A DNA stretch of 54,531 nt from a virus (lineage: Duplodnaviria; Caudoviricetes): the IMG/VR virus record IMGVR_UViG_3300037042_003862, positions 1 to 54,531 of that record; one strand, given 5' to 3'. This document shows positions 1 through 17,335 of this stretch, one piece after another; the first letter of the stretch is position 1; each line of letters starts with the position of its first letter. The position numbers and the translations under genes are program-made. Below the pieces are notes generated by a model, which was not told the origin of the DNA, ran no database searches, and saw only the letters and a program-made list of their open reading frames with translations.

Positions 1-70
1 CCCGGCCTACGGGTCGCGGAGTCGCGACTCTCGGACTCGCGACGGGTCCGAATCCCAGGACCCGCGGAAA

Positions 71-118
71 GTCCCGATTCGGGACCGTCCCGATTCGGGA
101 CCGTCCCGATTCGGGACC
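71..118. repeat. Three tandem 16-bp units GTCCCGATTCGGGACC, each containing a perfect 15-bp palindrome
   Basis: Units at 71-86, 87-102, 103-118; GTCCCGA-T-TCGGGAC is the consensus of the palindrome found upstream of the early promoters. Confidence 0.95.
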
Positions 119-247
119 GTCCGGGGGAGGCCTCCCCCTGGGCAACCCACCCGAGCCTGACACCGAGCTATCGTCCACAACTCAGCAACCCACGGACGTC
201 CACATCTGGACCACCGTGGGTTTTCTCGTTTCAAGAATCAGCACCAC

Positions 248-661
248 TCAGTAGTGGATCTTGAACCCGAGCATCTCCAGTTCGTTGCGAGTCGCGTCCG
301 ATCGGATGTGGCGCACCGTCCAGGCCAGCACCTCCTCCCTCGTGGGCGCAACGTTCGCGAAGGTCAGCTCAGCGGCGTGGACGTTCTCACCATCCTCCGA
401 CACGAACTCCAGAGCGACCATCGAGCGTTCCACGTTGCTCGGGTCCGCAGCGACGATCACGACAACGTTCGGAGCCTCCTCGAACACAGCGTCCATCGTG
501 AGTTTGCCAAAGAACGGTTCGGTGCCGTCGTCCCAGTCCTCGGCGCCACTGTAGTCCTGGTAGGTGTTCGTGTCGTGCTTCAGCTTGAGGCCTCCCTCGC
601 GTTCCGCGATGAGCTGGTCAACCATCTGGAACACCGCCGCACGTAGCTCGCTGGTCTTCAT
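248..661 (-). CDS. Hypothetical protein, paralog of 787..1134
   Basis: 137 aa ORF behind an inverted promoter repeat; shares W.DG.EPFF, MD.VF, EVL.W..RHI and ELxxLGF with 787..1134. Confidence 0.85.
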   Translation of the reverse strand: MKTSELRAAVFQMVDQLIAEREGGLKLKHDTNTYQDYSGAEDWDDGTEPFFGKLTMDAVFEEAPNVVVIVAADPSNVERSMVALEFVSEDGENVHAAELTFANVAPTREEVLAWTVRHIRSDATRNELEMLGFKIHY

Positions 662-668
662 ACTCCCC

Positions 669-696
669 TTATCGGCCGAATCCTGTCAGGACTTTA
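669..696 (-). promoter_or_regulatory. Sigma-28-like promoter repeat 1 (leftward)
   Basis: Minus strand TAAA-N16-GCCGATAA, 7 nt before ATG at 661. Confidence 0.8.
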
Positions 697-717
697 GCAA
701 AGCTCCCAGAAAACCCA

Positions 718-732
718 GTCTCGGAGCGGGAC
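718..732. promoter_or_regulatory. Palindromic operator-like site centred between divergent promoters
   Basis: GTCTCGGAGCGGGAC, 21 nt from the leftward TAAA and 20 nt from the rightward TAAA. Confidence 0.6.
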
Positions 733-752
733 TCGGAAAAGCGAACCCGAGC

Positions 753-780
753 TAAAGTCAGCACACGCCCGAGCCGATAA
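753..780 (+). promoter_or_regulatory. Sigma-28-like promoter repeat 2
   Basis: TAAA-N16-GCCGATAA, 6 nt before ATG 787. Confidence 0.8.
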
Positions 781-786
781 CGGAGT

Positions 787-1134
787 ATGGACCTAAAGCA
801 CAACCCTCTCCGACGGAGAGACTTCCACGCCGAGGCCTGGGCCGACGGCGCTGAGCCGTTCTTCGCAGAGGTTCGGATGGACAGCGTATTCACAGGGACC
901 TCGAAAGCGTGGGTTGTCGTCTGCGCCGCTGACGACAATCGGACCCAGAGCGTGATCGCGCTGGCGTTCATCGACAACCAGGGGCTGGAGGTAGACATCC
1001 TCCAGGAGGCCTCCCGCACGTTCCCCGCAGACGTGGAGCGGTGCGAGGTCCTCTCCTGGGCTCGGCGCCACATCCTCCCAGACACCACCGAGGCCGAGTT
1101 GAAGCTGCTGGGCTTCATCTTCACAGAGGCCTAA
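787..1134 (+). CDS. Hypothetical protein, paralog of 248..661
   Basis: 115 aa ORF directly behind promoter repeat; visible similarity to the divergent gene. Confidence 0.85.
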   Translation: MDLKHNPLRRRDFHAEAWADGAEPFFAEVRMDSVFTGTSKAWVVVCAADDNRTQSVIALAFIDNQGLEVDILQEASRTFPADVERCEVLSWARRHILPDTTEAELKLLGFIFTEA

Positions 1135-1164
1135 AGTCCACATCTCAGCAACCTCAAAAACAGC

Positions 1165-1192
1165 TAAAGTCAGCACAGCAAACAGCCGATAA
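1165..1192 (+). promoter_or_regulatory. Sigma-28-like promoter repeat 3
   Basis: TAAA-N16-GCCGATAA, 10 nt before ATG 1203. Confidence 0.8.
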
Positions 1193-1202
1193 CGGAGTCA
1201 TC

Positions 1203-1475
1203 ATGAGCAACATGTCCTACTGCCGCTTCCGAAACACCGTGAGCGACCTCCGTGACTGCAAGGAGGAGTTGAAGCTCCTCATGACGGGACGGCCGCACAC
1301 CATGATCAAGGACCCGGACGAACGGGAGGCGCGTGAGGAGTTAGTGCTGCTGTGCCTCCGCGTGGCCGCGATGTTCCCGGAGGCCGCAGAGCAAGAGGCT
1401 CCGGGAGACGCCATGCGCAGCGCCATCGCCCAGGCCGAGGAGGACTCGCCAGGGCAGGCCGAGGAGGAGTCCTGA
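1203..1475 (+). CDS. Hypothetical phage protein (MSNMSYCRF.NT..DL.DC N-terminus)
   Basis: Start moved from 1041 to the ATG behind the repeat; this N-terminal motif is one I recognise from small phage proteins. Confidence 0.8.
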   Translation: MSNMSYCRFRNTVSDLRDCKEELKLLMTGRPHTMIKDPDEREAREELVLLCLRVAAMFPEAAEQEAPGDAMRSAIAQAEEDSPGQAEEES

Positions 1476-1500
1476 ACCGAGATTCCGCAACCCACAACGC

Positions 1501-1528
1501 TAAAGTCCCCAGCACAATCAGCCGATAA
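1501..1528 (+). promoter_or_regulatory. Sigma-28-like promoter repeat 4
   Basis: TAAA-N16-GCCGATAA; palindrome at 1469-1483. Confidence 0.8.
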
Positions 1529-1537
1529 CGGAGTATC

Positions 1538-1714
1538 ATGAGCAAGTTCACGATCAAGCAGCCCACCCCAGCGCAGCTGGCGGTCCTCTTCCGAGCGAAG
1601 TCTGACTGGCAGGACTCGGACGGCACCAGCAAGAAGGCCGCAGCGACCTTCAACGCACTCCTCGCTCCGTTCGGCGAGTGCGAGGACCTGGGCCTGTTCT
1701 TCCTTCCGGAGTGA
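1538..1714 (+). CDS. Hypothetical protein (58 aa, not in ORF track)
   Basis: MSKFTIKQPTPAQL...FFLPE, ATG 9 nt behind repeat. Confidence 0.75.
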   Translation: MSKFTIKQPTPAQLAVLFRAKSDWQDSDGTSKKAAATFNALLAPFGECEDLGLFFLPE

Positions 1715-1746
1715 ATCCTGAATCGAGACTCCGCAACCCACAACGC

Positions 1747-1774
1747 TAAAGTCCCCAGCACAATCAGCCGATAA
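1747..1774 (+). promoter_or_regulatory. Sigma-28-like promoter repeat 5
   Basis: TAAA-N16-GCCGATAA; palindrome at 1715-1729. Confidence 0.8.
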
Positions 1775-1783
1775 CGGAGTATC

Positions 1784-1993
1784 ATGAGCCAAGAACAACG
1801 CGAGATGAACGCTCGGGCCTCGGCGAGGTCCTACCACGCAGCGATGGTCCGCCTGGGCGACTGGATGCCGTCGGAGTTCGATGCCGCGGACCGCTGCGGA
1901 TTCGCCAATTTCTTCGGAGACGGAGCCGAGCGCAAGGCCTTCATCGCCGAGTGGCTGCGCCTCGATTCGGGACTCCAGCAACCACAACGCTAA
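1784..1993 (+). CDS. Hypothetical protein
   Basis: 69 aa behind repeat; stop TAA is the TAAA of the next repeat. Confidence 0.75.
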   Translation: MSQEQREMNARASARSYHAAMVRLGDWMPSEFDAADRCGFANFFGDGAERKAFIAEWLRLDSGLQQPQR

Positions 1994-2019
1994 AGTCCCC
2001 GCCACACCCGAGCCGATAA
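1991..2019 (+). promoter_or_regulatory. Sigma-28-like promoter repeat 6
   Basis: TAAA-N17-GCCGATAA; palindrome at 1959-1973. Confidence 0.75.
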
Positions 2020-2028
2020 CGGAGTATC

Positions 2029-2313
2029 ATGAGCAAGATCAACAAGTCAGACATGATCGTTGCGGCCACGATGGCGAGTCTCTTCGCAAACTCCTCGGAG
2101 GTGGGCTGGGCCCAGATCAGTGCCGCGGTCCGAGCCTCGGAGGCTCGGGTGCCCAAGAACGGCTGGCTGCGCGTCCGGAGCCTCCTGCAGGGCACCTTCC
2201 TCAACGAGAAGGTGGTCGAGAGGACTGAGGATGTGTTCGGCGAGACCTACCGCGTGGTCAACGCCAAGGCGGCACAGTCCCTGAACGAGAACCTGAAGTG
2301 CTGGCTCAGCTAA
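2029..2313 (+). CDS. Hypothetical protein, possible winged-helix fold
   Basis: 94 aa behind repeat; helical pattern followed by a short beta hairpin (VVERTEDVFGETYRV). Confidence 0.75.
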   Translation: MSKINKSDMIVAATMASLFANSSEVGWAQISAAVRASEARVPKNGWLRVRSLLQGTFLNEKVVERTEDVFGETYRVVNAKAAQSLNENLKCWLS

Positions 2314-2338
2314 AGTCCGACCCACAATCAGCCGATAA
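2311..2338 (+). promoter_or_regulatory. Sigma-28-like promoter repeat 7
   Basis: TAAA-N16-GCCGATAA. Confidence 0.8.
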
Positions 2339-2347
2339 CGGAGTATC

Positions 2348-2515
2348 ATGAGCAACTACGGTCTGCGGTGGAATGAGTTCAACAAGAAGGGTGAGCTGGT
2401 CGCGAAGGAACGCTGGTTTGACTCGGAGGAGAGCCGCGAGCGTTTCCTGGACAAGCTCTACTCCAAGGAGAGCTTCCACAGCGTCAGCTCAACGTCCGAC
2501 CCGAAGCCCTCATGA
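2348..2515 (+). CDS. Hypothetical protein (55 aa, not in ORF track)
   Basis: MSNYGLRWNEFNKKGELVAKERWF...; ATG behind repeat, ATGA overlap with next gene. Confidence 0.75.
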   Translation: MSNYGLRWNEFNKKGELVAKERWFDSEESRERFLDKLYSKESFHSVSSTSDPKPS

Positions 2516-2745
2516 ACGCCACTTACACGGTCCTCCGCAAGATCGGCTCCCGCGAGCTGATCCACCGCTCCGCAGGCTCCGCGGCCGCAGGCTCCGGCAC
2601 CACACCAGTCCGGGAGGCCTGGGGGTCCATCAGCACCGCCAGGGACGGCACCACCCACGGCCGCTGGTTCCGGACCCGGGAGGAGGCGGAGGCCGACATC
2701 AACAACCACCTAGCGTCCACATCTCAACAACCCGACAGCAAATGA
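2512..2745 (+). CDS. Hypothetical protein
   Basis: 77 aa, ATGA-coupled to previous gene. Confidence 0.65.
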   Translation: MNATYTVLRKIGSRELIHRSAGSAAAGSGTTPVREAWGSISTARDGTTHGRWFRTREEAEADINNHLASTSQQPDSK

Positions 2746-2760
2746 GAGGTATGCTCTAAC

Positions 2761-2985
2761 ATGGCACACACCAGCATCACGCTCATCACCATCACCGGAA
2801 AGCCAGTCAGTCTCGTTTGCGACTCACGGGAGGGAGCCGAGGATGCAGCTCAGGACGTCATCGTGCGCGGTCTCGACCGTCCGAGCCCACTCGACGAACC
2901 CATCATCCGAGCCTTCATCAAGGAGGAGGGCAAGCCGCTGGAGGAGGTCCTCCCCAGCACACTCCTCAAGGAGGCCGACTCATGA
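2761..2985 (+). CDS. Hypothetical protein
   Basis: 74 aa; TATGCT 5 nt before the ATG. Confidence 0.65.
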   Translation: MAHTSITLITITGKPVSLVCDSREGAEDAAQDVIVRGLDRPSPLDEPIIRAFIKEEGKPLEEVLPSTLLKEADS

Positions 2986-3143
2986 AGCCGCTCTCAGCAT
3001 CCGTCACCGCCTTCCTGGCAGCACTCCCGCCAGTCGTCCACACCTCACACAATCCCTCCCTCAGGTTCGACACACGAACCGAGCGAGGGTGCTGGGTGGT
3101 CAGCGGGTGGGGCCGCATCCGACCAATCCGCCTTTCCAACTAA
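2982..3143 (+). CDS. Hypothetical protein
   Basis: MKPLSAS..., ATGA overlap; stop falls in the next repeat. Confidence 0.55.
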   Translation: MKPLSASVTAFLAALPPVVHTSHNPSLRFDTRTERGCWVVSGWGRIRPIRLSN

Positions 3144-3168
3144 AGTCCCCCCAGCAAACGGTCGATAA
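3141..3168 (+). promoter_or_regulatory. Sigma-28-like promoter repeat 8
   Basis: TAAA-N16-GTCGATAA. Confidence 0.75.
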
Positions 3169-3177
3169 CGGAGTATC

Positions 3178-3423
3178 ATGGACGAACAAGACAACAAGGA
3201 CCAGGTGCCCTGCGACACCTGCGAGCAGTGGGGATACGGGGCCATCCGACTGAAGGGGGTGCTGATCTGTGAGCTGGGAACGGGAGGGCAGTGGCCACGC
3301 CTCGTGGTCAACCGTTGCGATGCCTGCCGCTTGTTCGACTCGGATGACGATGCCCTCCAGGCCCTGCTGAAGGAACTGATCGAACGGACAAAAGCTAAAG
3401 TCCCAGGCACAAACGGTCGATAA
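3178..3423 (+). CDS. Small Zn-finger-like protein
   Basis: CDTC...CDAC followed by FDSDDDA; behind repeat. Confidence 0.75.
   Translation: MDEQDNKDQVPCDTCEQWGYGAIRLKGVLICELGTGGQWPRLVVNRCDACRLFDSDDDALQALLKELIERTKAKVPGTNGR
3396..3423 (+). promoter_or_regulatory. Sigma-28-like promoter repeat 9
   Basis: TAAA-N16-GTCGATAA, fully inside the 3' end of the upstream ORF. Confidence 0.75.
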
Positions 3424-3432
3424 CGGAGTATC

Positions 3433-3816
3433 ATGCTCAGCAACCCAGACTTCCAAGTCATCCCAGGAGTCCTCGCTCTGATCCCCAAGCCGGGCCAGCA
3501 ATCCCGATACATCTTCCGGATCAGCGAAGGGGCCAAGAAGTGGGACGGACACGGTTGCGACATCGCGGTCGAGTGCCCACGCACGGCCACCTACGCACCC
3601 TGCCTCATCAAGATCACCGGCCGCAAGGTCCGGATCGACTACCGAAGCTGGTCGCACACTACCTTCCGCGTGTCGGCTCAGATCTGGTTTCCGGCCGAGC
3701 CCTGGTCCGAGCCCCAGGAGTGGTCCGAGGCCGAGTCGGTGGAGCTGATCTTCAGCGAATCGGTCGAGCTGGACCAGGTCAAGTCCCTGTTCGAGACTCC
3801 CGCCACCCAGAGCTAA
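3433..3816 (+). CDS. Hypothetical protein
   Basis: 127 aa behind repeat. Confidence 0.75.
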   Translation: MLSNPDFQVIPGVLALIPKPGQQSRYIFRISEGAKKWDGHGCDIAVECPRTATYAPCLIKITGRKVRIDYRSWSHTTFRVSAQIWFPAEPWSEPQEWSEAESVELIFSESVELDQVKSLFETPATQS

Positions 3817-3842
3817 AGCTCCCCCCACACCCGAGCCGATAA
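3814..3842 (+). promoter_or_regulatory. Sigma-28-like promoter repeat 10
   Basis: TAAA-N17-GCCGATAA; palindrome at 3783-3797. Confidence 0.75.
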
Positions 3843-3851
3843 CGGAGTATC

Positions 3852-4247
3852 ATGACGATCCAACTGAACCACCTCCACTTCCAAGAGTTCCTGCGAGGAT
3901 ACCGCGAGGGCCTCCGAGCCTACAACACGATGGTCGAAACGGAGGGCGGTGAGCTGGAGTCCACGCCAGACATCCCCGACCAGCCCCTGGGGCTGGGCTT
4001 GACGATGGCCACGGCGAGGGAGGCCCAGGACTTCATGGCCGGCAACGTTCGGGACCTCGACCGATTCTGCCACGAGTTCGGCGAGAGCTACCGTCGCGTG
4101 GGCCTGCTGTTCGCTCTGAACAAGAACGGCCACGGCGCTGGGTTCCAGAACTACAACGGCGAGGCCGCTCGGGCCCTGCGCTCGGCCGCCAAGACCTACG
4201 GTGCGACCACGCTCCTGGTCTCCGGAGGAGTCCTGGTGAGTCTCTGA
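3852..4247 (+). CDS. Hypothetical phage protein (NGHGAGF motif)
   Basis: GLLFALNKNGHGAGF resembles the GHD.WLTRNGHGAGFW motif of a common phage hypothetical family. Confidence 0.75.
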   Translation: MTIQLNHLHFQEFLRGYREGLRAYNTMVETEGGELESTPDIPDQPLGLGLTMATAREAQDFMAGNVRDLDRFCHEFGESYRRVGLLFALNKNGHGAGFQNYNGEAARALRSAAKTYGATTLLVSGGVLVSL

Positions 4248-4271
4248 TCGAGACCGCATCAACCACAACGC

Positions 4272-4299
4272 TAAAGTCAGCACAACAATCAGCCGATAA
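4272..4299 (+). promoter_or_regulatory. Sigma-28-like promoter repeat 11 (no GGAG downstream)
   Basis: TAAA-N16-GCCGATAA-CCATACC-ATG; palindrome at 4240-4254. Confidence 0.8.
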
Positions 4300-4306
4300 C
4301 CATACC

Positions 4307-4840
4307 ATGAACGCCAAGCAACTCGACCTGCTCTCGATCCCAGCCCTGTTCGCCATCCTCAAGAGCGTGGAGACGCGCATGGCGGTCCTCTCGCGGTCCG
4401 CGGTGGGCACCAAGAGCGACTGGGTGCCCAACCTCAACCTCACGCACGATGAGGCCCTCGCGGAGTTCTCGGAGTGCGTCACCCTCCACCAACTCCTGGT
4501 CCCGCGGCTGGATCGGGCAATGGCCGAGGCAGCCTCCTCGGTGAAGCTGGTCTTCACCCCCAACGGAACGGGTCGCAACTTCGGGCTGGATGTCCAGGCA
4601 AACCTCGGCCACGGGATGGAAACGCTCTACCGCACCGGCCTCTACCTGAGCGAGAAGGCTGCCGTGGATTGCGTCGAGCAAGAAGGGCCCGACAACATCG
4701 CCAAGACCGTCATCCGCTACCTCAGCGAGAAGGCCACGGTCCAGCTGGAGGATCGAGACTCCTCACTGGTCCGCATCGCGGTCGCAACGCAGTTCCGCCA
4801 GCTGGCGGCGTCGGTCTCGAAACAAGACGCCAAAGTCTGA
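4307..4840 (+). CDS. Hypothetical protein
   Basis: 177 aa behind repeat; internal repeat YLSEKA twice. Confidence 0.75.
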   Translation: MNAKQLDLLSIPALFAILKSVETRMAVLSRSAVGTKSDWVPNLNLTHDEALAEFSECVTLHQLLVPRLDRAMAEAASSVKLVFTPNGTGRNFGLDVQANLGHGMETLYRTGLYLSEKAAVDCVEQEGPDNIAKTVIRYLSEKATVQLEDRDSSLVRIAVATQFRQLAASVSKQDAKV

Positions 4841-4848
4841 GGCGGAGC

Positions 4849-4877
4849 TAAAGTCCCACCACCACCCGAGCCGATAA
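4849..4877 (+). promoter_or_regulatory. Sigma-28-like promoter repeat 12
   Basis: TAAA-N17-GCCGATAA; palindrome at 4814-4828. Confidence 0.75.
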
Positions 4878-4886
4878 CGGAGTATC

Positions 4887-5273
4887 ATGGGGAAGCTAAC
4901 TCTCGCAGCCGCTCGGAAGCAACTCAAGCGCACGTATGAGCTGAAGGATCAGCGAGTCAGCATCCGGAGCCCAGGCTCCCTGGGCCAGCGAGTCTACCAG
5001 CTGGAGGGAGGTATCCAACTCCGCAAGGAGATGGCCTACAAGCACGCTCGGGACCTCGTGGAGACCATGGTTGCCCGCGAGGTTACCAGCCTGACCAAGA
5101 TTGTCCTGCGTGAGAACACGTGGGAGGATTCGGGCTGGTCCACAGTCTACCTGATCGGCACCGAGGTAGTATTGATTCACCACAGCTCAGTGGATCGCAC
5201 CGCCCTCGGGCCCTTCCGGGAGGCGGAGTTGAAGCGTCAGATGGCCGTCCTGATTCGGGACACCAAAGTCTGA
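4887..5273 (+). CDS. Hypothetical protein
   Basis: 128 aa behind repeat. Confidence 0.75.
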   Translation: MGKLTLAAARKQLKRTYELKDQRVSIRSPGSLGQRVYQLEGGIQLRKEMAYKHARDLVETMVAREVTSLTKIVLRENTWEDSGWSTVYLIGTEVVLIHHSSVDRTALGPFREAELKRQMAVLIRDTKV

Positions 5274-5281
5274 GGCGGAGC

Positions 5282-5309
5282 TAAAGTCAGCACAACAATC
5301 AGCCGATAA
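5282..5309 (+). promoter_or_regulatory. Sigma-28-like promoter repeat 13
   Basis: TAAA-N16-GCCGATAA; palindrome at 5247-5261. Confidence 0.8.
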
Positions 5310-5318
5310 CGGAGTATC

Positions 5319-5873
5319 ATGGCACGAGTCGAACACGTCAAGTCAGCGCGCAAGGAGCAGGGCAACTGCGGTAGGTGCGGCGCTGAGATTCTCAAGGGCA
5401 TGCCCTACAAGTCAGTGGCGTTCTTCCGCGGACCGCGGAAGGTCCGGTGCGGCAACTGCTCGTTCCGGCCGTCGGAGTTGACGCAGAGCAAAATGAGCCA
5501 GGCCCTCGCGGCCGAGGAGACCATCCAGGACATCATCAACCAGTGGAACGGCGAGGACTTCGACTCGATCAAGAGCGACATCGCGGACCAGGCGCAGGAG
5601 ATTCGGGACGTGGCGGAAGAATACACCAGCGCGGCCGACGGCATGGAAACCAACGGCTCAAACAGCATCTCCGACGAATGGCGGGAGAAGGCTGACGCGC
5701 TGGAGGACTACGCCAGCTCGATCGAGGATGCCACCGAGGAGGTGCCGGACTACGAGGGCCCGATGGAGGAGGGCGAGGACCCCCAGCCGAAGAAAGATAG
5801 CGATGAGTTCAAGGCCTGGGTCGATGAGGCCAGGGGCATCCTCGCCGGACCGCTGGGGAATATGCCGGACTGA
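5319..5873 (+). CDS. Zn-ribbon protein with acidic helical C-terminus
   Basis: CGRC...CGNC, basic N-terminus, strongly D/E-rich C-terminal half. Confidence 0.85.
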   Translation: MARVEHVKSARKEQGNCGRCGAEILKGMPYKSVAFFRGPRKVRCGNCSFRPSELTQSKMSQALAAEETIQDIINQWNGEDFDSIKSDIADQAQEIRDVAEEYTSAADGMETNGSNSISDEWREKADALEDYASSIEDATEEVPDYEGPMEEGEDPQPKKDSDEFKAWVDEARGILAGPLGNMPD

Positions 5874-5875
5874 GC

Positions 5876-5903
5876 TAAAGTCCCCAGCACAATCAGCCGA
5901 TAA
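5876..5903 (+). promoter_or_regulatory. Sigma-28-like promoter repeat 14
   Basis: TAAA-N16-GCCGATAA. Confidence 0.8.
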
Positions 5904-5912
5904 CGGAGTATC

Positions 5913-6227
5913 ATGAGCAACCTGTTCAGCAACAAGCAGACCCTCTCGGTGACGGTGACGGTGACGTTTGACCCGTCCGAGCTGATCGACCTCCTGTCCA
6001 TCAGCCACTTCCCCATGGAGTTCCTCCAAACGAACAAGGACATCAAGGCGGCCATCAAGCTGATGGTCGAAACGGAGGCCCTCCGGTGCAAGCAGCGCAT
6101 CCGAGACTTCCGCGCAGGCGGAAAGCCGCACGAGGCTCGGCTCTGCTGGGATGACGCGTCGATTGCGGTGCGGCAACGTCGCCTGGCGTTCCGCGTTGGG
6201 GCTGGGGGCACCGCCACCCCGTCCTGA
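5913..6227 (+). CDS. Hypothetical protein
   Basis: 104 aa behind repeat; stop TGA inside palindrome 6221-6235. Confidence 0.75.
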   Translation: MSNLFSNKQTLSVTVTVTFDPSELIDLLSISHFPMEFLQTNKDIKAAIKLMVETEALRCKQRIRDFRAGGKPHEARLCWDDASIAVRQRRLAFRVGAGGTATPS

Positions 6228-6251
6228 TCCGAGACTCCCGACCCACAACGC

Positions 6252-6279
6252 TAAAGTCAGCACAACAATCAGCCGATAA
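6252..6279 (+). promoter_or_regulatory. Sigma-28-like promoter repeat 15
   Basis: TAAA-N16-GCCGATAA, 6 nt before ATG 6286. Confidence 0.8.
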
Positions 6280-6285
6280 CGGAGT

Positions 6286-6513
6286 ATGAGCAACGCACGC
6301 TACAAGGACCTGGCCGATTGCCTCTCGATCCGCTACGGTGTCTCGGCCATGGTCGCGAGTCCGACCACGGTGCTGTGGGCGGCCAACCACCTGATCGAGG
6401 TCGGAACGCTGGAGGTGGCCGCGGCCAAGAGCCAGCTGAAGGCTCTCAACGCCCAGCGCCACAAGCTCGGCGTGATCCCGGCATACGCTGACTTCGGCAC
6501 GAGGCTCTTCTGA
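6286..6513 (+). CDS. Hypothetical protein
   Basis: 75 aa behind repeat. Confidence 0.7.
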   Translation: MSNARYKDLADCLSIRYGVSAMVASPTTVLWAANHLIEVGTLEVAAAKSQLKALNAQRHKLGVIPAYADFGTRLF

Positions 6514-6779
6514 TGACGACCATCCACATCCCAGCTCAGCAATGGACCCGCACCAGCGAGTGCCCCGCATTCGATACAACGTTTGAAGTCAAGGCAGGGG
6601 ACTACGAGGTGGTGACGGTGGAATACCACGCAGGCTACCCATTCTCGGCCGTCTGCGTCGATGCGGCCCAGGTCCGGGAGACTCCGGCCGCTCTCCTCGG
6701 AGGGATGCCGGTGGGCTGGACCAAGGAGGTCGGAAAGCCCACCCAGGTCCTCATCCCCCTCAAGGACCTCACCAAGTGA
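6513..6779 (+). CDS. Hypothetical protein
   Basis: 88 aa, TGATG-coupled. Confidence 0.7.
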   Translation: MTTIHIPAQQWTRTSECPAFDTTFEVKAGDYEVVTVEYHAGYPFSAVCVDAAQVRETPAALLGGMPVGWTKEVGKPTQVLIPLKDLTK

Positions 6780-6811
6780 GTCCTGAATCGGGACTCACTC
6801 GACCACAACGC

Positions 6812-6839
6812 TAAAGTCCCCAGCACAATCAGCCGATAA
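6812..6839 (+). promoter_or_regulatory. Sigma-28-like promoter repeat 16
   Basis: TAAA-N16-GCCGATAA; palindrome at 6780-6794. Confidence 0.8.
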
Positions 6840-6848
6840 CGGAGTATC

Positions 6849-7178
6849 ATGACCCAGACCAAGCACCAGACCGACTGCTCCAGCGCGACACTGACCCGTT
6901 TCGAGAGGTTCGCTCTCGAAAAGAACCGCCAGATCGACTACCAGGACATTCGGCAGTTCCTGCTCGGCGAGGGATACCGAGACCCGGCACGCGCCACCGA
7001 GGGCCTCCTCGACAAGCTCCAGGTGGACAGCAAGGACATGTGGCTGATCGCCCAGGTGGGCCGAGCCTGTGCCCGCGAGGCCCGTGAGCTGCGCGAGGTC
7101 CTCCACGGCCTGGAGAGCGCCAAGCGCGCAGTCCGGGAGGAGGTTCGCAGCCGCTGGCCGGACTTGCTCGCAGACTGA
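6849..7178 (+). CDS. Hypothetical protein
   Basis: 109 aa behind repeat, coiled-coil-like C-terminus. Confidence 0.75.
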   Translation: MTQTKHQTDCSSATLTRFERFALEKNRQIDYQDIRQFLLGEGYRDPARATEGLLDKLQVDSKDMWLIAQVGRACAREARELREVLHGLESAKRAVREEVRSRWPDLLAD

Positions 7179-7199
7179 CACCGACCCCACGTCCACATC

Positions 7200-7382
7200 A
7201 TGACCAACGACACCACCACCGCTGCGATCCTCCTACTGGAGGGAGTCGTGCTCGACATCCACATCCACACCCACTTCCAGGAGGCACGGAAGCGCATCCT
7301 CAAGACAATCGACCTGCTGTCGGGAGGGAATGACGCGCTGATTCCGTCCTGGTTGCTGGCCGAGGTCCAGGGACTCCGCTAA
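7200..7382 (+). CDS. Hypothetical protein
   Basis: 60 aa; stop in the TAAA of the next repeat. Confidence 0.55.
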   Translation: MTNDTTTAAILLLEGVVLDIHIHTHFQEARKRILKTIDLLSGGNDALIPSWLLAEVQGLR

Positions 7383-7407
7383 AGTCAGCACCTCAATCAG
7401 CCGATAA
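7380..7407 (+). promoter_or_regulatory. Sigma-28-like promoter repeat 17
   Basis: TAAA-N16-GCCGATAA. Confidence 0.8.
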
Positions 7408-7416
7408 CGGAGTATC

Positions 7417-8241
7417 ATGACGACGCAACGAAATGACGCGCACCTCCCGAGCAAGCTGGTCCCGGCCGACTACACGCACGTGATGAGCTTTGTCTACCCG
7501 AGCGAGGGCCTCCCGTTCGGGTTCGGAGTCGTGCAGCTGAACGCTCTCAAGGCCTCGGCTCCGTTCTTCCGCAAGCCGTCGGGCAAGAGCGGCTGCGCGA
7601 TCTGTGGGGCCCACTACCTCAGCGGTGACGTGTTCTTCCACGCGCCGACGGGCCAGCACATCGAGGTCGGTTGGGAGTGCGGCGACAAGCTGAACGCCCA
7701 CATCGACAGGAGCGAGACCGTCCAGGGAGCCCAGCGGGGCAAGCAGGAGAACCTCCTGCGCCTGGAGCGGGAGCGTCGCAAGGAGGAGGCCGAGCAGTTC
7801 TGCCTGGCCAACGAGGGCCTCAAGGAGGCTCTCCTCCTCGACCACCCGATCACCAAGGACCTCGCAGCCTCGCTGGCGAAGTGGGGCTGCCTGAGCGAGA
7901 AGCAGGTGGCGCTGGCTCTGAAGCTGGTGAAGGATGCGGCGACTCCGCCCAAGGCCAAGGCGGACGTTCCGGAGGGCAAGCAGACCCTCGTGGGCAAGCT
8001 GATCAAGATCAAATACGTGGACAGCAACTTCGGAGTCTCGGTCAAGATGCTGGTCGAGGTCGAGACTTCGACGGGATTCTTCCGAATCTACGGCACCAAG
8101 CCATCGGCCCTCCCGTCCAGCACTCCGGCTGGGACGATGCTCAGCTTCACGGCCGCGGTGGATCGGTCGGAGGATGACCCCTCGTTCGGGTTCTTCGCTC
8201 GGCCGACCAAGCTCGTGGTCCTGACCGCCACCCCGTCCTGA
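7417..8241 (+). CDS. Zn-binding protein with possible C-terminal OB fold
   Basis: CAICG...VGWEC, L.KWG.LSEKQ helix motif, beta-rich C-terminus ending FGFFARPTK. Confidence 0.8.
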   Translation: MTTQRNDAHLPSKLVPADYTHVMSFVYPSEGLPFGFGVVQLNALKASAPFFRKPSGKSGCAICGAHYLSGDVFFHAPTGQHIEVGWECGDKLNAHIDRSETVQGAQRGKQENLLRLERERRKEEAEQFCLANEGLKEALLLDHPITKDLAASLAKWGCLSEKQVALALKLVKDAATPPKAKADVPEGKQTLVGKLIKIKYVDSNFGVSVKMLVEVETSTGFFRIYGTKPSALPSSTPAGTMLSFTAAVDRSEDDPSFGFFARPTKLVVLTATPS

Positions 8242-8265
8242 ATCGGGACTCCCGCGACACCTCGC

Positions 8266-8293
8266 TAAAGTCCCCAGCACAATCAGCCGATAA
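8266..8293 (+). promoter_or_regulatory. Sigma-28-like promoter repeat 18
   Basis: TAAA-N16-GCCGATAA; palindrome at 8235-8249. Confidence 0.8.
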
Positions 8294-8302
8294 CGGAGTA
8301 TC

Positions 8303-8545
8303 ATGAAGCTGACCAAAGAACAACGCAAGGCCCTGTGGTGCTTCGACCTCGCAGGGAAGATGGGAGCGGTGGTGATCACCCAGCTGCGCGAGCGCATGAG
8401 CGAGGTCGATGCCTTGCTCGCGGCAAAGTTCATCACCAGGACCGACCGCATCGGCGGCCTGACGGACTCGGGCGAACTGAGCTGGGCCCCAGTCTACACC
8501 ATCACCAAGGCTGGCTGCGACTACCTGGACGGAAACCCGCAATGA
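8303..8545 (+). CDS. Small winged-helix-like protein
   Basis: LTKEQRKAL...YTITKAGCDYL, a typical wHTH wing ending. Confidence 0.7.
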   Translation: MKLTKEQRKALWCFDLAGKMGAVVITQLRERMSEVDALLAAKFITRTDRIGGLTDSGELSWAPVYTITKAGCDYLDGNPQ

Positions 8546-8748
8546 AGACCATCCACACGTTCACAAACGGAGCACGCCGAGTCGAGGTCGGAGGGATCAC
8601 CCTCACCGTCGACAGGACCGGCCGCATCTCGTGGGCCTCCGACTGGGGGGACATCAACAAGCTGGTGGAGTCCGGCCTCGTGCGCCGGGTCCACTACCCC
8701 CACCTGTGGGGCCACACGGAGTTCATCCTGGTGGAGGCCTCCAAGTGA
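8542..8748 (+). CDS. Hypothetical protein
   Basis: MKTIHTFTNG..., ATGA overlap. Confidence 0.65.
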   Translation: MKTIHTFTNGARRVEVGGITLTVDRTGRISWASDWGDINKLVESGLVRRVHYPHLWGHTEFILVEASK

Positions 8749-8969
8749 CCCTCAACAAGGCCCAGCGCCACCTGCTCTACCGCGTGCGCATAGATGGAGC
8801 CCACGTCCACATCTTTGGAAGACAGCAGCAGGCCGTCGCCCACAGCCTCGTGGTCTTGGGCTACCTGAAGGTGTCCGCCACGCTCCGCAAGCTCCTGAAG
8901 GACCACGAGGAGCCGGTCCCACTCTACTCAATCACCGAGACCGGGGTGGCCTGGCTCCGGAGGCCCTGA
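8745..8969 (+). CDS. Small winged-helix-like protein, similar to 8303..8545
   Basis: GTG start in GTGA overlap; LNKAQRHLL...YSITETGVAWL. Confidence 0.65.
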   Translation: MTLNKAQRHLLYRVRIDGAHVHIFGRQQQAVAHSLVVLGYLKVSATLRKLLKDHEEPVPLYSITETGVAWLRRP

Positions 8970-9193
8970 TGGCCAAGCCGTTCACCGCGGAGCCCGAGTT
9001 TGACCCTCGGCGCAACGCCTTCAACTGGGGATTCTGGGCCGGATTCCACAACAGAGTCCCCGCACCAGCCCCTACGGACAAGGACTGGGTGGCCGGCATG
9101 AGCGCAGGTGCCTCATACCGAGCCTCGCCTCCTCCCGGTTGGGACCGCACAACTTCAGAGCCCGCATGGGCATCCTACAGGAAGAAACCATGA
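8969..9193 (+). CDS. Hypothetical protein
   Basis: 74 aa, TGATG-coupled. Confidence 0.65.
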   Translation: MAKPFTAEPEFDPRRNAFNWGFWAGFHNRVPAPAPTDKDWVAGMSAGASYRASPPPGWDRTTSEPAWASYRKKP

Positions 9194-9282
9194 CCACAAC
9201 CCTCCTCACCCTGGCCGCTTGTCTCCTCGGCGCGGCCGTCATCGTCCTGGCTGCCTGCAACTGGATCCTTGAGCAGATCTGA
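9190..9282 (+). CDS. 30-aa hydrophobic peptide
   Basis: MTTTLLTLAACLLGAAVIVLAACNWILEQI; ATGA overlap, fills the gap to the next gene. Confidence 0.5.
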   Translation: MTTTLLTLAACLLGAAVIVLAACNWILEQI

Positions 9283-9284
9283 CC

Positions 9285-9686
9285 ATGCAGACGTTCCTAC
9301 CCCTTGCGGACTTTGAGGCAACTGCGCTCATCCTCGACTGGCGCCGCCTGGGGAAGCAGCGGGTTGAGGCCCTCCAGATCCTCCGGACCCTCTCCGGAGC
9401 CTCCAAGGGCTGGGCCAACCACCCGGCCGTGGTCATGTGGCGGGGCCACCCCCTGGCCCTCCAGGCCTACCAGGACGCCATGGTGCGGGAGTGGGTCCGC
9501 CGGGGCTACCGCAACACCATAGAACTGGCGGGCGTCCACATCTCACCCACCGACCTCCCGCCCTGGTTCGGCGACCCGGCATTCCACGCGAGTCACCGGA
9601 GCAACCTACTGCGCAAGGATGCGGCGCACTACGGCCGGTTTGGGTGGGCCGAGCCGCCCGACCTCCCCTACATCTGGCCCACTTGA
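9285..9686 (+). CDS. Pyrimidine-dimer DNA glycosylase-like protein (MSMEG_6728/DenV-related)
   Basis: MQTFLP...LD.RRLGKQRVE..QIL...GW.NHPAV.MWRG...H.SHRSNLLRKD..HY...LPY.WP. Confidence 0.85.
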   Translation: MQTFLPLADFEATALILDWRRLGKQRVEALQILRTLSGASKGWANHPAVVMWRGHPLALQAYQDAMVREWVRRGYRNTIELAGVHISPTDLPPWFGDPAFHASHRSNLLRKDAAHYGRFGWAEPPDLPYIWPT

Positions 9687-10956: not shown

Positions 10957-11181
10957 TCACGGCTTCTGCTCCTTGCCGTCGATGCCCGCCATCTCGGCGC
11001 GGAGGGCACGCTTCGTGCCCGCCAAAGCGATCATGTCAGCGGTGCAGCTATCCTCGCTGTCCATCGCATCGTCCGCCGCAATCCACCGCCGCACGGCTGC
11101 GCGGAGGGAGAGGAGGTCGGACATTACGACGAGCGGATAGTCCCACGGGTCAACCTGTTCGTCGTGCAGTTGCTGCGTCAC
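10957..11181 (-). CDS. Hypothetical protein, paralog of 11441..11683
   Basis: GTG in GTGA overlap; SDLL.LRA.VR....DD...ALRA.M..I shared. Confidence 0.6.
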   Translation of the reverse strand: MTQQLHDEQVDPWDYPLVVMSDLLSLRAAVRRWIAADDAMDSEDSCTADMIALAGTKRALRAEMAGIDGKEQKP

Positions 11182-11444
11182 GGCAGGATCTCCGGCAGCA
11201 CCTCGCGGAGTGCGTTGAGTGCGACCGCATCGACATGCGTCTCGCCTGCATACCCTGGGATGATCCCCATCGGACCGATCCCCGCGTCCGTCTCCACCAC
11301 CGCCCGCGCCCGGTCGCGCAGGGTGCGGACGGCAGCACGCTCTCCCGGGCTGATGTGTTCGGTCGCACAGCACTTGTCGTAGAACACCATCGCGTGCTCG
11401 ACGCGCAACAAGAGATTGTCCGTCAGCTTGATGGGGTTGGTCAT
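11178..11444 (-). CDS. Hypothetical protein
   Basis: 88 aa, overlapping start/stop on both sides. Confidence 0.65.
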   Translation of the reverse strand: MTNPIKLTDNLLLRVEHAMVFYDKCCATEHISPGERAAVRTLRDRARAVVETDAGIGPMGIIPGYAGETHVDAVALNALREVLPEILP

Positions 11445-11683
11445 AGCGGTATGTCGCCCATTGCTGCTCGGAGGGCGGACCTCGCGGCGTGGAGTGGCTT
11501 CAGTGCCTCGCGAGCATTGTGGATGGGGTCATCGCCGGGAGCTTCCACAACCTTCTGAAAGTCATCCTCAGCCTTGTGGAGGTCCCTCACCATCGCTCGG
11601 AGGGCAAGCAGGTCAGAAGACATCTCCGCCACCGCCGGGTCGCTGGTGGACAACCCAATACTGAACACCTTGGAGGACCTCAT
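11441..11683 (-). CDS. Hypothetical protein, paralog of 10957..11181
   Basis: 80 aa, ATGA coupling. Confidence 0.65.
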   Translation of the reverse strand: MRSSKVFSIGLSTSDPAVAEMSSDLLALRAMVRDLHKAEDDFQKVVEAPGDDPIHNAREALKPLHAARSALRAAMGDIPL

Positions 11684-12153
11684 GCCGGGTTCTCGTTGCG
11701 CAGGCCCTGCCTCATCAGGTCCGCCGCTAGGTGGATTTCACTGCGGTGGATCCGAAACACGTTGGGGGTCTCAGACGGGCAGGCTATGGCCTCGCGACAC
11801 CAGTTTGCTATAGCTGCCTGGGTCAGAGGAGCGGACGGGTAGGCCATCTGTGGGGACTTCTGAGGGGCCCCACGCAACCTACCCAGCTCAGCTCTCAGCT
11901 CCAGAGCTGTTGAAACAAGGCTCTCGTTGGGCGGAACCTGAAGCACCTCCCGGACCTCGCGCAGGGTCATCTCTGCCGCCCGGAGACGAGCATTGACCGC
12001 ATCCGTGGTCAACAACTCGTCCCCTGGGAGGGAGTCCAGCTCAACTCGCTCAAACGTGCGCCCGATCTCCTGGGCGATACGCTCCGCGCTGTCTGCGTCG
12101 GTGACGACATGATACCGGAGAATGCCGGCAATGATGACGTTGTTGTCATTCAT
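11680..12153 (-). CDS. Hypothetical protein
   Basis: 157 aa, GAAGGA before ATG. Confidence 0.7.
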   Translation of the reverse strand: MNDNNVIIAGILRYHVVTDADSAERIAQEIGRTFERVELDSLPGDELLTTDAVNARLRAAEMTLREVREVLQVPPNESLVSTALELRAELGRLRGAPQKSPQMAYPSAPLTQAAIANWCREAIACPSETPNVFRIHRSEIHLAADLMRQGLRNENPA

Positions 12154-12199
12154 GATCCTTCCAACTCAAACATTTGCCTGTAGGGGTGCTTGTAGCCCT

Positions 12200-12403
12200 T
12201 CATGACTTCAGCGCCAGCATCGTCAGCAACCAGCACGCTGAGAGCACGAGGCAGACCACGACCACCACCCAGCGTTCGCGTCGAGCGGCACGCTTCAGTC
12301 GGTCCGGGCAGCTGACGAACGGAGCACCGCCGTAGCCGATGCCGCAGTCAACACATCCGTCGTAGTCGGGGTTGAACCTGTGTCCTGAGTAGTGCTGATC
12401 CAT
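12200..12403 (-). CDS. Small membrane protein with Cys motif
   Basis: Start moved to MDQHY; H...CVDC...C then a C-terminal hydrophobic helix. Confidence 0.55.
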   Translation of the reverse strand: MDQHYSGHRFNPDYDGCVDCGIGYGGAPFVSCPDRLKRAARRERWVVVVVCLVLSACWLLTMLALKS

Positions 12404-12415
12404 GATAGGGAAGTA

Positions 12416-16522: not shown

Positions 16523-16550
16523 TTATCGGCTGAAACGTTTGCTGACTTTA
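16523..16550 (-). promoter_or_regulatory. Sigma-28-like promoter repeat 19
   Basis: Minus strand TAAAGTCAGCAAACGTTTCAGCCGATAA (N16), 14 nt before ATG 16508. Confidence 0.8.
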
Positions 16551-17279: not shown

Positions 17280-17312
17280 ACACCCCTGATGAGGACCTCC
17301 TCATCAGGGGTG
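17270..17312 (-). terminator. Intrinsic terminator ending the replication operon
   Basis: Perfect 14-bp stem CACCCCTGATGAGG/CCTCATCAGGGGTG followed on the minus strand by TTTTACTTTTT. Confidence 0.85.
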
Positions 17313-17335
17313 CGTTACTGACGGTCCCGAGGTCT

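Follow-up and report, generated by a model that had tools for sequence, protein, structure and literature searches.

Candidate sigma-28-type promoter cassettes precede the small genes of an uncultured sediment phage

Results

A small-ORF array and its repeated element

The window, that is, the whole 54,531-nt stretch analysed here (IMG/VR record IMGVR_UViG_3300037042_003862, Caudoviricetes), is an 83% complete genome. Its predicted features around the repeated element are listed below.

248..661, minus strand: ORF, paralogue of ORF 787-1134 (42% identity)
669..696, minus strand: sigma-28-type promoter, leftward half of a divergent pair; ORF 248-661 begins with an ATG at the 8th nt past the box
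753..780, plus strand: sigma-28-type promoter, opens the plus-strand array; ORF 787-1134 begins with an ATG at the 7th nt past the box
787..9686, plus strand: small-ORF array, about 24 ORFs with high GC3, 17 of them beginning directly behind a cassette
1165..1192, plus strand: sigma-28-type promoter; the 11th nt is the ATG (cggagtcatcATG)
1501..1528, plus strand: sigma-28-type promoter, standard cassette cggagtatcATG
1747..1774, plus strand: sigma-28-type promoter, standard cassette
1991..2019, plus strand: sigma-28-type promoter, standard cassette, spacer 17 nt
2311..2338, plus strand: sigma-28-type promoter, standard cassette
3141..3168, plus strand: sigma-28-type promoter, -10 box GTCGATAA
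3396..3423, plus strand: sigma-28-type promoter, -10 box GTCGATAA
3814..3842, plus strand: sigma-28-type promoter, -35 box TAAAGCT, spacer 17 nt
4272..4299, plus strand: sigma-28-type promoter without Shine-Dalgarno motif; ORF 4307-4840 begins with an ATG at the 8th nt past the box
4849..4877, plus strand: sigma-28-type promoter, spacer 17 nt
5282..5309, plus strand: sigma-28-type promoter, standard cassette
5876..5903, plus strand: sigma-28-type promoter, standard cassette
6252..6279, plus strand: sigma-28-type promoter; ORF 6286-6513 begins with an ATG at the 7th nt past the box
6812..6839, plus strand: sigma-28-type promoter, with the best upstream hairpin just 5' of it (8-bp stem, about 6776-6798)
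7380..7407, plus strand: sigma-28-type promoter, standard cassette
8266..8293, plus strand: sigma-28-type promoter, closes the array of cassettes
16523..16550, minus strand: sigma-28-type promoter, isolated within the minus-strand block, without Shine-Dalgarno motif
17280..17313, minus strand: intrinsic terminator, 15-bp stem and T run, the sole strong one in the window

All 19 sites lie directly 5' of the start of an ORF on the same strand, with 6-14 nt from the box to the ATG. At the isolated site, 16550, the ATG of the 233-aa ORF 15807-16508 is the 15th nt past the box, and the TAA of the -35 box doubles as the stop codon of ORF 16548-16853. The terminator at 17280..17313 ends the long minus-strand block, upstream of this promoter. 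No intrinsic terminator was detected on the plus strand of the array (787..9686), suggesting that its transcripts would be nested and co-terminal. RNA folds of the intergenic units were no better than those of shuffles in five of six units; the sixth forms a clear hairpin that lacks a T run.

Neither Pfam (0 of 18) nor, with one exception, PHROG matched the 18 small array ORFs scanned, the single PHROG match being to a family of unknown function, and further early ORFs were also without significant matches. The last array ORF (9285-9686) is a DenV-like pyrimidine-dimer glycosylase, and a 701-aa protein of the window resembles a PcRGLX-type glycan enzyme. The paralogues 248-661 and 787-1134 stand on either side of the divergent promoters, and each has a match in the first array gene of a related complete genome, G012; no fold match was found for this small family of unassigned function.

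Copy number and conservation of the motif

The pattern CTAAAG(TC)-N13/14-G(C/T)CGATAA occurs at 19 sites in the window, 17 on the plus strand (753-8293) and two on the minus strand (696 and 16550). The octamer GCCGATAA is present 17 times, compared with a mean of 0.56 and a maximum of 2 in 100 dinucleotide shuffles. The stricter pattern TAAAGTC-N13/14-GCCGATAA gave 14 forward and two reverse matches, and its reversed-pattern control gave none on either strand. A scan tolerating up to three mismatches over CTAAAGTC plus GCCGATAA, with spacers of 11-14 nt, returned precisely the 19 sites (0-2 in 20 mononucleotide shuffles), and by this measure no weaker or degenerate copies exist elsewhere in the window.

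A sequence-only reading had placed 19 elements at the positions tabulated above, and a relaxed pattern recovered the same 19. The near invariance that it ascribed to the boxes was reproduced on recounting: the -35 box is TAAAGTC in 18 of 19 sites (TAAAGCT at 3814) and the -10 octamer is GCCGATAA in 17, the other two (3141 and 3396) having GTCGATAA; the C preceding TAAAG is invariant (19/19). Its description of the spacer, fixed in length and free in sequence, stood in its first part. Sixteen sites have 16 nt from TAAA to GCCGATAA and three have 17 nt (12 or 13 nt between octamers), but sequence does not vary freely, since cccagcacaatca recurs at six sites and agcacaacaatca at three. This recurrence suggests that many of the cassettes are recent duplicates. 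Because many are near-identical including the spacer, conservation within the genome may partly reflect recent duplication rather than selection.

The repeat extends 3' of the boxes as CGGAGTATC-ATG, a Shine-Dalgarno motif followed by the start codon; on the 5' side it continues into a loose element, GTCCTGAwTCGrGACTCC. The two minus-strand copies share only boxes and spacing with those on the plus strand. At the 4272 site, a variant contig (run X2) differs at three of the seven nucleotides between box and ATG, their number being unchanged.

Likeness to flagellar promoters

The consensus for E. coli sigma-28 (FliA) is TAAAGTTT-n11-GCCGATAA (PMC2859248), and in the P. aeruginosa fliC promoter TCTAAAG spans -36 to -30 and GCCGATAA spans -15 to -8 (PMC12784957). 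The window sites have the bipartite layout of these class III flagellar promoters, the same -10 octamer in 17 of 19 and CTAAAG in all 19. They differ in lying within a virus, 17 of them within 7.6 kb, and in octamer spacing, which is 12-13 nt as against the 11 that is the norm in E. coli and P. aeruginosa.

In bacterial genomes, flgK (Cupriavidus, Ralstonia, Vogesella), fliC, yjfB, flgN, flgB and a flgG-like gene have the exact 30-nt window pattern upstream, and nine of ten selected ORFs downstream of such matches belong to flagellar Pfam families. Among perfect sites in five Burkholderiales-type genomes, seven of 12 have the shorter (11-nt) spacing, and the five longer ones were the basis on which these genomes were chosen. 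TAAA-N16-GCCGATAA does occur in natural promoters of flgK, fliC and yjfB, which may ease the concern that the spacer of the phage sites is too long.

Predicted transcription starts

The E. coli aer transcript starts 6 bp past the octamer (PMC2859248). From this and the measured P. aeruginosa fliC start, initiation would be expected 6-8 nt past the -10 box. The start codon then coincides with the predicted transcription start in four sites and lies 2-3 nt past it in 14, whereas the first ORF begins 26-150 nt from the box in the bacterial flagellar examples. The first cistron of each mRNA would thus be leaderless or nearly so, because the predicted start is either the A of the start codon or 2-3 nt before it. 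This abutment of start codon and predicted transcription start is a new point, missed by the sequence-only reading, and the leaderless translation that we infer from it is a prediction from geometry. The four window sites with the ATG as 7th or 8th nt past the box have no usable Shine-Dalgarno motif, GGAG being only 1 nt from the ATG at 753, 6252 and 696. Where GGAG stands between box and start codon, only transcripts reading through from upstream promoters could use it. Since the predicted start cuts GGAG off, transcription may begin further upstream, or GGAG may act in translation alone.

The element in related phages

Three relatives were compared. L281 is syntenic with the window over eight proteins (39-78% identity), the fragment L066 is syntenic with L281 (46-72% identity), and G012, a complete 66.6-kb genome, shares 29 of the 71 proteins of the window, their order unchanged. 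L066 carries the divergent pair GCTAAAGTCC-N12-GCCGATAA, and at both of its perfect sites a GTG is the 8th nt. G012 has nine TAAAG-N15-GCCGATAA/T sites within 3.3 kb (control, 0), each followed, from the 8th-10th nt, by a conserved G+C hairpin of 6-8 bp; these hairpins scan as terminators on the opposite strand. Like the four window start codons at the 7th or 8th nt, these L066 and G012 positions lend indirect support to the predicted transcription start. The window, L066 and G012 have identical boxes and the TAAA-N16 spacing, with unrelated spacers and flanks. Gene content between cassettes also differs among the relatives, only the first array gene being common to the window and G012. Because the promoters of G012 and L066 aim at terminase and head genes, the promoter type is not obviously confined to an early class.

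Search for a phage sigma factor or polymerase

Six-frame searches for Sigma70_r2 and Sigma70_r4 domains found none in the window, L066, L281 or complete G012, although factors too diverged for Pfam (T4 gp55-like, SPO1-like) would escape such searches. The sequence-only reading had seen no sigma gene in the window, and this result extends the observation to the relatives. No sigma factor or RNA polymerase was found among 58 window proteins by Pfam and PHROG scans. A search of the window for a T7-type RNA polymerase had no match, but as its control likewise matched nothing the search was uninformative. Sites of sigma-70-like consensus were at or below chance (3 vs 2.2, 4 vs 3.1 and 0 vs 3.1), and within the cassette no TTGACA/TATAAT-like hexamer pair occurs at proper spacing. 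By synteny with L281 and L066, the missing part of the window would hold terS, terL, portal, adaptors, a head morphogenesis protein and one large protein.

Discussion

We think it probable that the 19 elements are host sigma-28-dependent promoter cassettes, in an architecture like that of the promoter-early stem-loop (PeSL) cassettes but with an alternative sigma factor. RNA polymerase with a factor of the sigma-28 family (FliA/SigD/WhiG type), most likely that of the host, would read the -35 box CTAAAGTC and the -10 box GCCGATAA across a 12-13-nt spacer between octamers. The sequence-only reading had argued that the elements behave as sigma-28-type promoters; this is supported, in that boxes and spacing alone are conserved within the genome and among three phages, all 19 sites of the window face an ORF, the identical N16 pattern stands ahead of flgK, fliC, yjfB and flgN in bacteria, and the domain searches of the window and its relatives found no sigma-70 domain. 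The transcription start, the use of host FliA, early timing, gating of infection by host motility and the identity of the host are points that we infer, and the host-takeover role and the restriction to flagellated cells put forward by the sequence-only reading are conjectural. Cells normally contain little sigma-28, and FlgM keeps it bound; for a lytic phage, reliance on it is odd, which counts against this reading.

A factor encoded by the phage might mimic sigma-28 specificity, whether as a sigma of high divergence or as a protein that modifies the polymerase; its gene would lie in the 17% of the genome that the window lacks or be one of the ORFs of unknown family. The incomplete window leaves space for such a gene, as do the small ORFs with almost no Pfam or PHROG matches and the conserved first array gene, whose family (787-1134, 248-661 and the G012 homologue) has neither function nor fold match. 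We nevertheless consider it unlikely: synteny fills the missing part with terS, terL, portal and head-type genes, complete G012 has nine sites and no Sigma70_r2/r4 domain, the boxes are identical to those of natural flagellar promoters, and, if the array genes are expressed first, the factor would need to be injected alongside the DNA. That the cassettes are promoters for another host holoenzyme (with activator-aided sigma-70, with an ECF sigma, or with a sigma-28 paralogue of non-flagellar function, for instance a WhiG-like developmental factor) seems to us quite improbable. Although the spacer exceeds the enterobacterial norm, sigma-70-like hexamers at the right spacing are lacking, the boxes equal the flagellar consensus base for base and stand ahead of flagellar genes in several phyla, and the nearest phage relatives infect Pseudomonas.

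The repeats might instead be recombination or translation-initiation cassettes, duplicated and kept for their Shine-Dalgarno motif and start codon, with an incidental likeness to sigma-28 promoters. The start-associated sequences of cluster K mycobacteriophages are a model for such elements. Consistent with this, CGGAGTATC-ATG is conserved as strongly as the boxes, identical spacer variants recur, the repeat runs into the 3' ends of preceding ORFs, and every copy is a break point in Logan contigs. Yet boxes and spacing are perfect at 4272 and 16550, where a Shine-Dalgarno motif is missing and the sequence that follows is unrelated; at 753, 6252 and 696, GGAG is too close to the ATG to function; only boxes and spacing are kept in L066 and G012; and the RNA folds do not exceed shuffles in five of six units. 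A 15/16-nt match to a known bipartite consensus in three phages is also very unlikely by chance, and we regard this explanation as highly improbable. Under the sigma-28 promoter reading, the near-identical cassettes between unrelated small ORFs would probably serve as recombination points too, like PeSL in T4-like phages. If that reading is true, an uncultured sediment phage borrows the motility sigma factor of its host to turn on small genes. The sequence-only reading knew of no phage programme of such design, and full-text literature searches likewise found none.

The replication and DNA-modification modules of the window occur in the same order in the Mesyanzhinovviridae, siphoviruses of Pseudomonas (Abidjanvirus Ab18, PaMx11, Yuavirus), with an identity of about 55% for PolA and about 43% for primase; helicases, a ThyA-like enzyme and a 5-hmdU DNA kinase are also common to both. 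These phages differ in having all genes on one strand, relative to which the small-ORF array of the window is inverted, and GCCGATAA occurs neither in the Ab18 record, searched in full, nor in the initial 50 kb of Yuavirus Lydia.

Phage programmes driven by phage-encoded sigma factors include those of SPO1 gp28 and gp33/34 and of T4 gp55. The window resembles them in that an array of non-sigma-70 promoters defines a phage gene class. There the phage supplies the sigma factor, whereas here none was found in complete G012 by a Pfam-level search and the motif is a host consensus.

The PeSL cassettes of T4-like myoviruses (PMC2839356, PMC4122927) are similar in architecture. Their promoters are sigma-70-like, whereas those of the window are sigma-28-like; the window and its relatives are siphoviruses related to Mesyanzhinovviridae, not T4-like; and the stem-loop of the window is weak and upstream of the promoter, cassette recombination being here a conjecture. 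The PeSL cassettes are, like those of the window, short, near-identical regulatory units ahead of numerous small ORFs that are not conserved, in a plastic part of the genome, with 17 cassettes for about 24 ORFs in our case, and in G012 a conserved stem-loop comes after the promoter.

Proposed two-box promoter sites in the window

We searched the window for the two boxes of the proposed sigma-28-type promoter, a -35 box of the TAAAG type and a -10 octamer. The octamer GCCGATAA was counted 17 times against 0.56 expected, and the full two-box pattern 16 times against 0 in the reversed control. A relaxed pattern returned 19 sites, and all of the sites, box-variant counts and spacer lengths of the sequence-only reading were reproduced with it. 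When the 54.5 kb were scanned with up to three mismatches allowed, exactly these 19 sites were found, with no weaker or degenerate copy; shuffled sequences gave 0 to 2. Every site (19 of 19) immediately precedes an ORF of its own strand, and 17 of these promoter cassettes serve the array, a plus strand run of small ORFs.

Landmarks of the window (coordinates, strand, feature)
696 (partner 753), minus: leftward member of the divergent pair, two-box pattern
787 to 9686, plus: about 24 small ORFs, from ORF calling
9285-9686, plus: T4 endonuclease V-like pyrimidine-dimer glycosylase, last array gene (Pfam Pyr_excise, E = 7e-24)
54405 down to 9668, minus: dense gene block, from ORF calling
12815-14317, minus: Ro60/TROVE-vWA protein, 500 aa (PHROG 'RNA-binding protein')
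16550, minus: lone site, two-box pattern
17313-17280, minus: strong terminator, 15-bp stem and T run, from the terminator scan
17336-19441, minus: 701-aa protein, adjoining the primase gene, away from the tail genes
26866-27876, minus: ThyA-like enzyme (hypermodification set, 26866-31133)
28102-29217, minus: 5-hmdU DNA kinase, HMUDK (same set)
29471-30034, minus: PIG-L-like protein (same set)
30012-31133, minus: GT4-like glycosyltransferase (same set)

The consensus of the repeat is g-CTAAAGTC, 13 nt, GCCGATAA, CGGAGTATC and ATG, with cggagtATG, ccataccATG and cggagtatcATG among the forms that lead from the box to the start. A loose GTCCTGAwTCGrGACTCC element lies upstream and frequently takes in the stop codon of the ORF before it. 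The spacer is variable, yet two versions recur unchanged, in 6 and in 3 copies, so that many cassettes are recent duplicates. Taken alone, conservation within one genome would support a function only weakly. The copies that carry information are the divergent ones at 696(-), 16550(-), 4272, 3141 and 3396, which have only the boxes and their spacing in common with the other copies. RNA structure was rejected as an explanation of the repeats, as five of six intergenic units folded no better than shuffled sequences.

Neither other repeated motifs nor sigma-70 promoters for the minus strand rose above chance in the window, and sigma-70-like consensus sites across it were at or below chance. The best of these (TTTACT-18-TATACT) stands directly after the strong terminator, both within 17250-17313 (minus strand), and the two together define the boundary of a transcription unit upstream of the 16550 promoter. 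No other recognisable promoter was found in the long minus strand block before this terminator.

The same boxes in related phages

L281, a 14-kb fragment of a related phage reached via a head protein, is syntenic with the right end of the window (8 proteins at 39-78% identity); in its upstream part lie the genes for terL, portal, adaptor, head-closure and head-morphogenesis proteins and for one large protein. A second fragment, L066, was initially found through the motif alone. Because its gene order is that of L281, to which it is 46-72% identical, we assign it to the same lineage, spanning the part missing from the window. L066 carries a divergent pair of perfect GCTAAAGTCC-N12-GCCGATAA sites and three degenerate sites about 3.9 kb upstream of terS. 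Between these promoters and terS (11000-13000, minus strand) there are long open frames without ATG, GTG or TTG starts, one of which apparently begins at ATT after GGAGG, and many CTACGTAG-type palindromes in a region of unusual composition.

A motif scan of 80 terL relatives (1.03 Mb) gave 14 matches against 1 in the control, and nine of them were in one contig, G012. This complete genome, 66,627 bp long and bounded by terminal repeats, has 29 of 71 window proteins in common, in the same order. Its nine TAAAG-N15-GCCGATAA/T sites are grouped in a 3.3-kb run of small ORFs immediately before the terminase genes. Conservation across the window, L066 and G012 is limited to TAAAG, GCCGATAA and the TAAA-N16 spacing; the spacer, upstream and downstream sequences of the three are unrelated. 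Such a two-box footprint is what a bipartite promoter would be expected to leave.

The octamer was absent from Ab18, an isolated Pseudomonas siphovirus (Abidjanvirus), both in its first 50 kb and in the whole record, and from the first 50 kb of a Yuavirus. An IMG/VR exact-motif scan listed 84 stretches; of those scanned for site number (L010-L092), all had a single site except L066, with its divergent pair, and L090, which was entered twice. The motif plus CGGAG gave 0 matches in metagenomes. Several motif sites also occur in further viral contigs; G010, for one, has 6, including a divergent pair, against 0 in the control in 50.9 kb, and some phage use of sigma-28/SigD-type promoters probably extends beyond the lineage of the window. 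In the low-GC viral contigs L079, L080, L087 and L060 (G006, G007, G008 and G010), TAAAG...GCCGATAA overlaps TTGACA-N17-TAgaAT sigma-70-like promoters.

Which polymerase reads the sites

The boxes of the window are those of the sigma-28 consensus, which is TAAAGTTT-n11-GCCGATAA for E. coli (PMC2859248) and appears in P. aeruginosa fliC as TCTAAAG at -36 to -30 and GCCGATAA at -15 to -8 (PMC12784957). The window spacer is one nt longer than in these promoters. The exact 30-nt window pattern was found in at least 120 stretches of bacterial genomes, and the matches, 80 of them listed, span many phyla. Nine of ten downstream ORFs, chosen for flagellar-looking N-termini, carry flagellar Pfam families: FlgK (Ralstonia, Cupriavidus, Vogesella), flagellin (a Burkholderiaceae MAG and a Chitinispirillales MAG), YjfB, FlgN, a rod protein and an FlgG-like protein. 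Since flagellar genes stand behind the exact pattern, the spacing of the window is naturally in use. The 11-nt spacer was commoner in five bacterial genomes (7 of 12 sites, the remaining 5 being the matches by which the genomes were selected).

A phage-encoded factor was the alternative. The sequence-only reading had seen no sigma factor gene in the window, and six-frame searches for Sigma70_r2 and Sigma70_r4 agreed, finding none in the window, L066, L281 or the complete G012, with the positive controls recovered in 11-14 reference genomes. Among 58 window proteins, Pfam and PHROG scans revealed no sigma factor and no polymerase; in a search for the T7-polymerase family, the control matched nowhere. 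We also considered the 701-aa ORF as a hidden RNA polymerase and rejected it. The protein has no Pfam, PHROG or phage match, and its ESM Atlas neighbours are PcRGLX-like RIFT-barrel glycan-degrading enzymes; by this likeness it may be a depolymerase. The simplest reader of the sites would be a host factor of the sigma-28 family. Sequence and comparative evidence together make it likely that the sites are sigma-28-family promoters read by the host enzyme, and this part of the programme put forward in the sequence-only reading is well supported.

Predicted start geometry of the transcripts

Measured sigma-28 starts lie from 6 bp (aer, PMC2859248) to 8 nt (fliC numbering, PMC12784957) past the octamer. 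In the window, the distance from box to ATG is 6 nt at 2 sites, 7 at 2, 9 at 13, 10 at 1 and 14 at 1 (n = 19). At the four closest sites (4272, 753, 6252 and 696) the A of ATG, as 7th or 8th nt, coincides with the expected +1; GGAG is absent at 4272, and at the other three it lies 1 nt from ATG and is unusable. At the two perfect L066 sites, a GTG stands at the 8th nt and starts ORFs of 85 and 92 codons. The G012 sites are followed, from the 8th-10th nt, by a conserved G+C hairpin, and start codons there lie 17-59 nt past the box. A low-depth variant contig from another sediment run has 3 of 7 nt altered between the box at 4292-4299 and ATG, with their number kept and the boxes and spacer unchanged.

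With this geometry, the mRNA leader would be 0-3 nt long for 18 of the 19 promoters, and GGAG, at about -6 to -3, would be useful only to read-through transcripts. We infer a leaderless mechanism from these distances. A terminator scan of the array detected none on the plus strand, so the transcripts would be nested. On the minus strand, a Shine-Dalgarno-like core was present 3-10 nt upstream of only 19 of 46 ORF starts (longest-ORF calls, uncurated), and many starts carry an A/C-rich ...GAACC-ATG context in its place; the sparse cores hint at a host with weak Shine-Dalgarno usage.

Architecture of the array

The two ORFs on either side of the divergent pair, 787-1134 (plus) and 248-661 (minus), are paralogous (42% identity, E = 5e-23), and both match the first array gene of G012. 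Their family, to which L364 591-923 also belongs, had about 21 representatives in a profile search of 1.84 billion proteins, 0 of them annotated. The AlphaFold model is fair (pLDDT 81), and Foldseek found nothing in the PDB at E <= 0.001. For ORF 248-661, a metagenome search gave no relatives and a homologous-protein search returned only itself. The product of the first array gene is a candidate for the first protein made by the lineage.

Apart from the first gene, the window and G012 arrays have no common ORFs, and 18 small window ORFs gave 0 Pfam and 1 PHROG assignment. G012, Ab18 and Yuavirus carry all genes on one strand, with the small-ORF region ahead of the terminase genes; relative to these, the window region is inverted, with one paralogue left behind. 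At the other end of the array, the pyrimidine-dimer glycosylase gene runs 19 nt into the 3' end of the convergent exonuclease gene, and no terminator separates the two. A distant relative of two window array genes, L158 7000-16300 (IMGVR_UViG_3300005805_000002), has an intergenic cassette of its own, in which the palindrome TTAACCGGAtATCCGGTTAA precedes a CA-rich leader (CAACCACAACC...CAACTACCAC-ATG) without Shine-Dalgarno, in at least 8 copies.

Gene content and affiliation of the phage

The IMG/VR viral contig is linear (54,531 bp, CheckV completeness 83%). Its minus strand block encodes head and tail proteins, including tape measure, J-like hub and tail tube, together with an SNF2 helicase, a Dda-like helicase, PolA, primase, the Ro60/TROVE protein and an exonuclease. 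An Rfam scan of the whole window gave no family above threshold, Y-RNA-like or other, and a tRNA search found none. The block also holds the thymidine-hypermodification genes for the 5-hmdU DNA kinase, ThyA-like enzyme, glycosyltransferase and PIG-L-like protein; the kinase and ThyA-like genes have homologues in Ab18, G012 and the database stretch L094. Modification of the phage DNA at T is probable and may have a bearing on which promoter types function there.

Among isolated phages, the closest are Mesyanzhinovviridae siphoviruses of Pseudomonas, whose PolA is about 55% identical; for the tail proteins, identity to phages of Stenotrophomonas, Variovorax, Pseudomonas and Xanthomonas is only about 32%. 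When window 1-9000 and 20000-40000 were compared with isolated phages by megablast, no match was returned, and a tail protein searched among bacterial genomes had no relatives. The best DNA source match was a sediment metagenome; no RNA dataset was listed as a match, and three matching DNA runs, made up of assembled contigs, show no transcript starts.

Timing, host state and comparison with known systems

The promoters of L066 and G012 point to packaging genes, and the minus strand block of the window has no other recognisable promoter before the strong terminator. The label 'early region' for the ORFan array is therefore plausible but unestablished, and use of this promoter type may extend beyond early genes. 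Early timing and motility gating, the remaining parts of the sequence-only reading, are what we infer rather than what the sites display.

A wider reading, which we regard as possible but doubtful, is that an environmental siphovirus lineage with thymidine-hypermodification genes dropped sigma-70 promoters and launches its genes as leaderless mRNAs from host sigma-28 promoters, fired by motile hosts. Possibly all genes would be launched, via the divergent control region. Injected DNA would be silent in non-motile (FlgM-locked) cells and active only in a flagellated host, giving a repressor-free switch that would link lytic growth to the planktonic, dispersing host state. Coupling to flagellar adsorption, or to the lesser dependence of sigma-28 on -10 thymine contacts, may apply.

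Phage takeover programmes are known to use the host housekeeping sigma factor, phage-made sigma factors or phage polymerases. A programme on the host flagellar sigma factor would, if true, be an additional strategy, tying productive infection to host cell state (motile cells with FlgM exported), with relevance to sediment and biofilm phage ecology, stalled infections and phage-host matching. The sequence-only reading knew of no such described programme, and the full-text literature we searched, in which few subscription journals are included, likewise yielded no paper on phage genes under sigma-28-type promoters. In a review of flagellotropic phages (PMC9266447), the terms flagellar sigma, FliA, sigma factor and promoter occur only in the reference list.

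The cassette of about 45 bp combines promoter, Shine-Dalgarno and start codon; such cassettes lend themselves as natural parts to sigma-28-orthogonal expression and as natural test cases to the study of leaderless translation, and the three related genomes are a phylogenetic footprint ready for experiments. The finding builds on known kinds of element, sigma-28 promoters and phage regulatory cassette arrays. As described in PMC2839356 and PMC4122927, the promoter-early stem-loop (PeSL) cassettes of T4-like phages show the same pattern as the window array, whereas their promoters are sigma-70-like and those of the window sigma-28-like.
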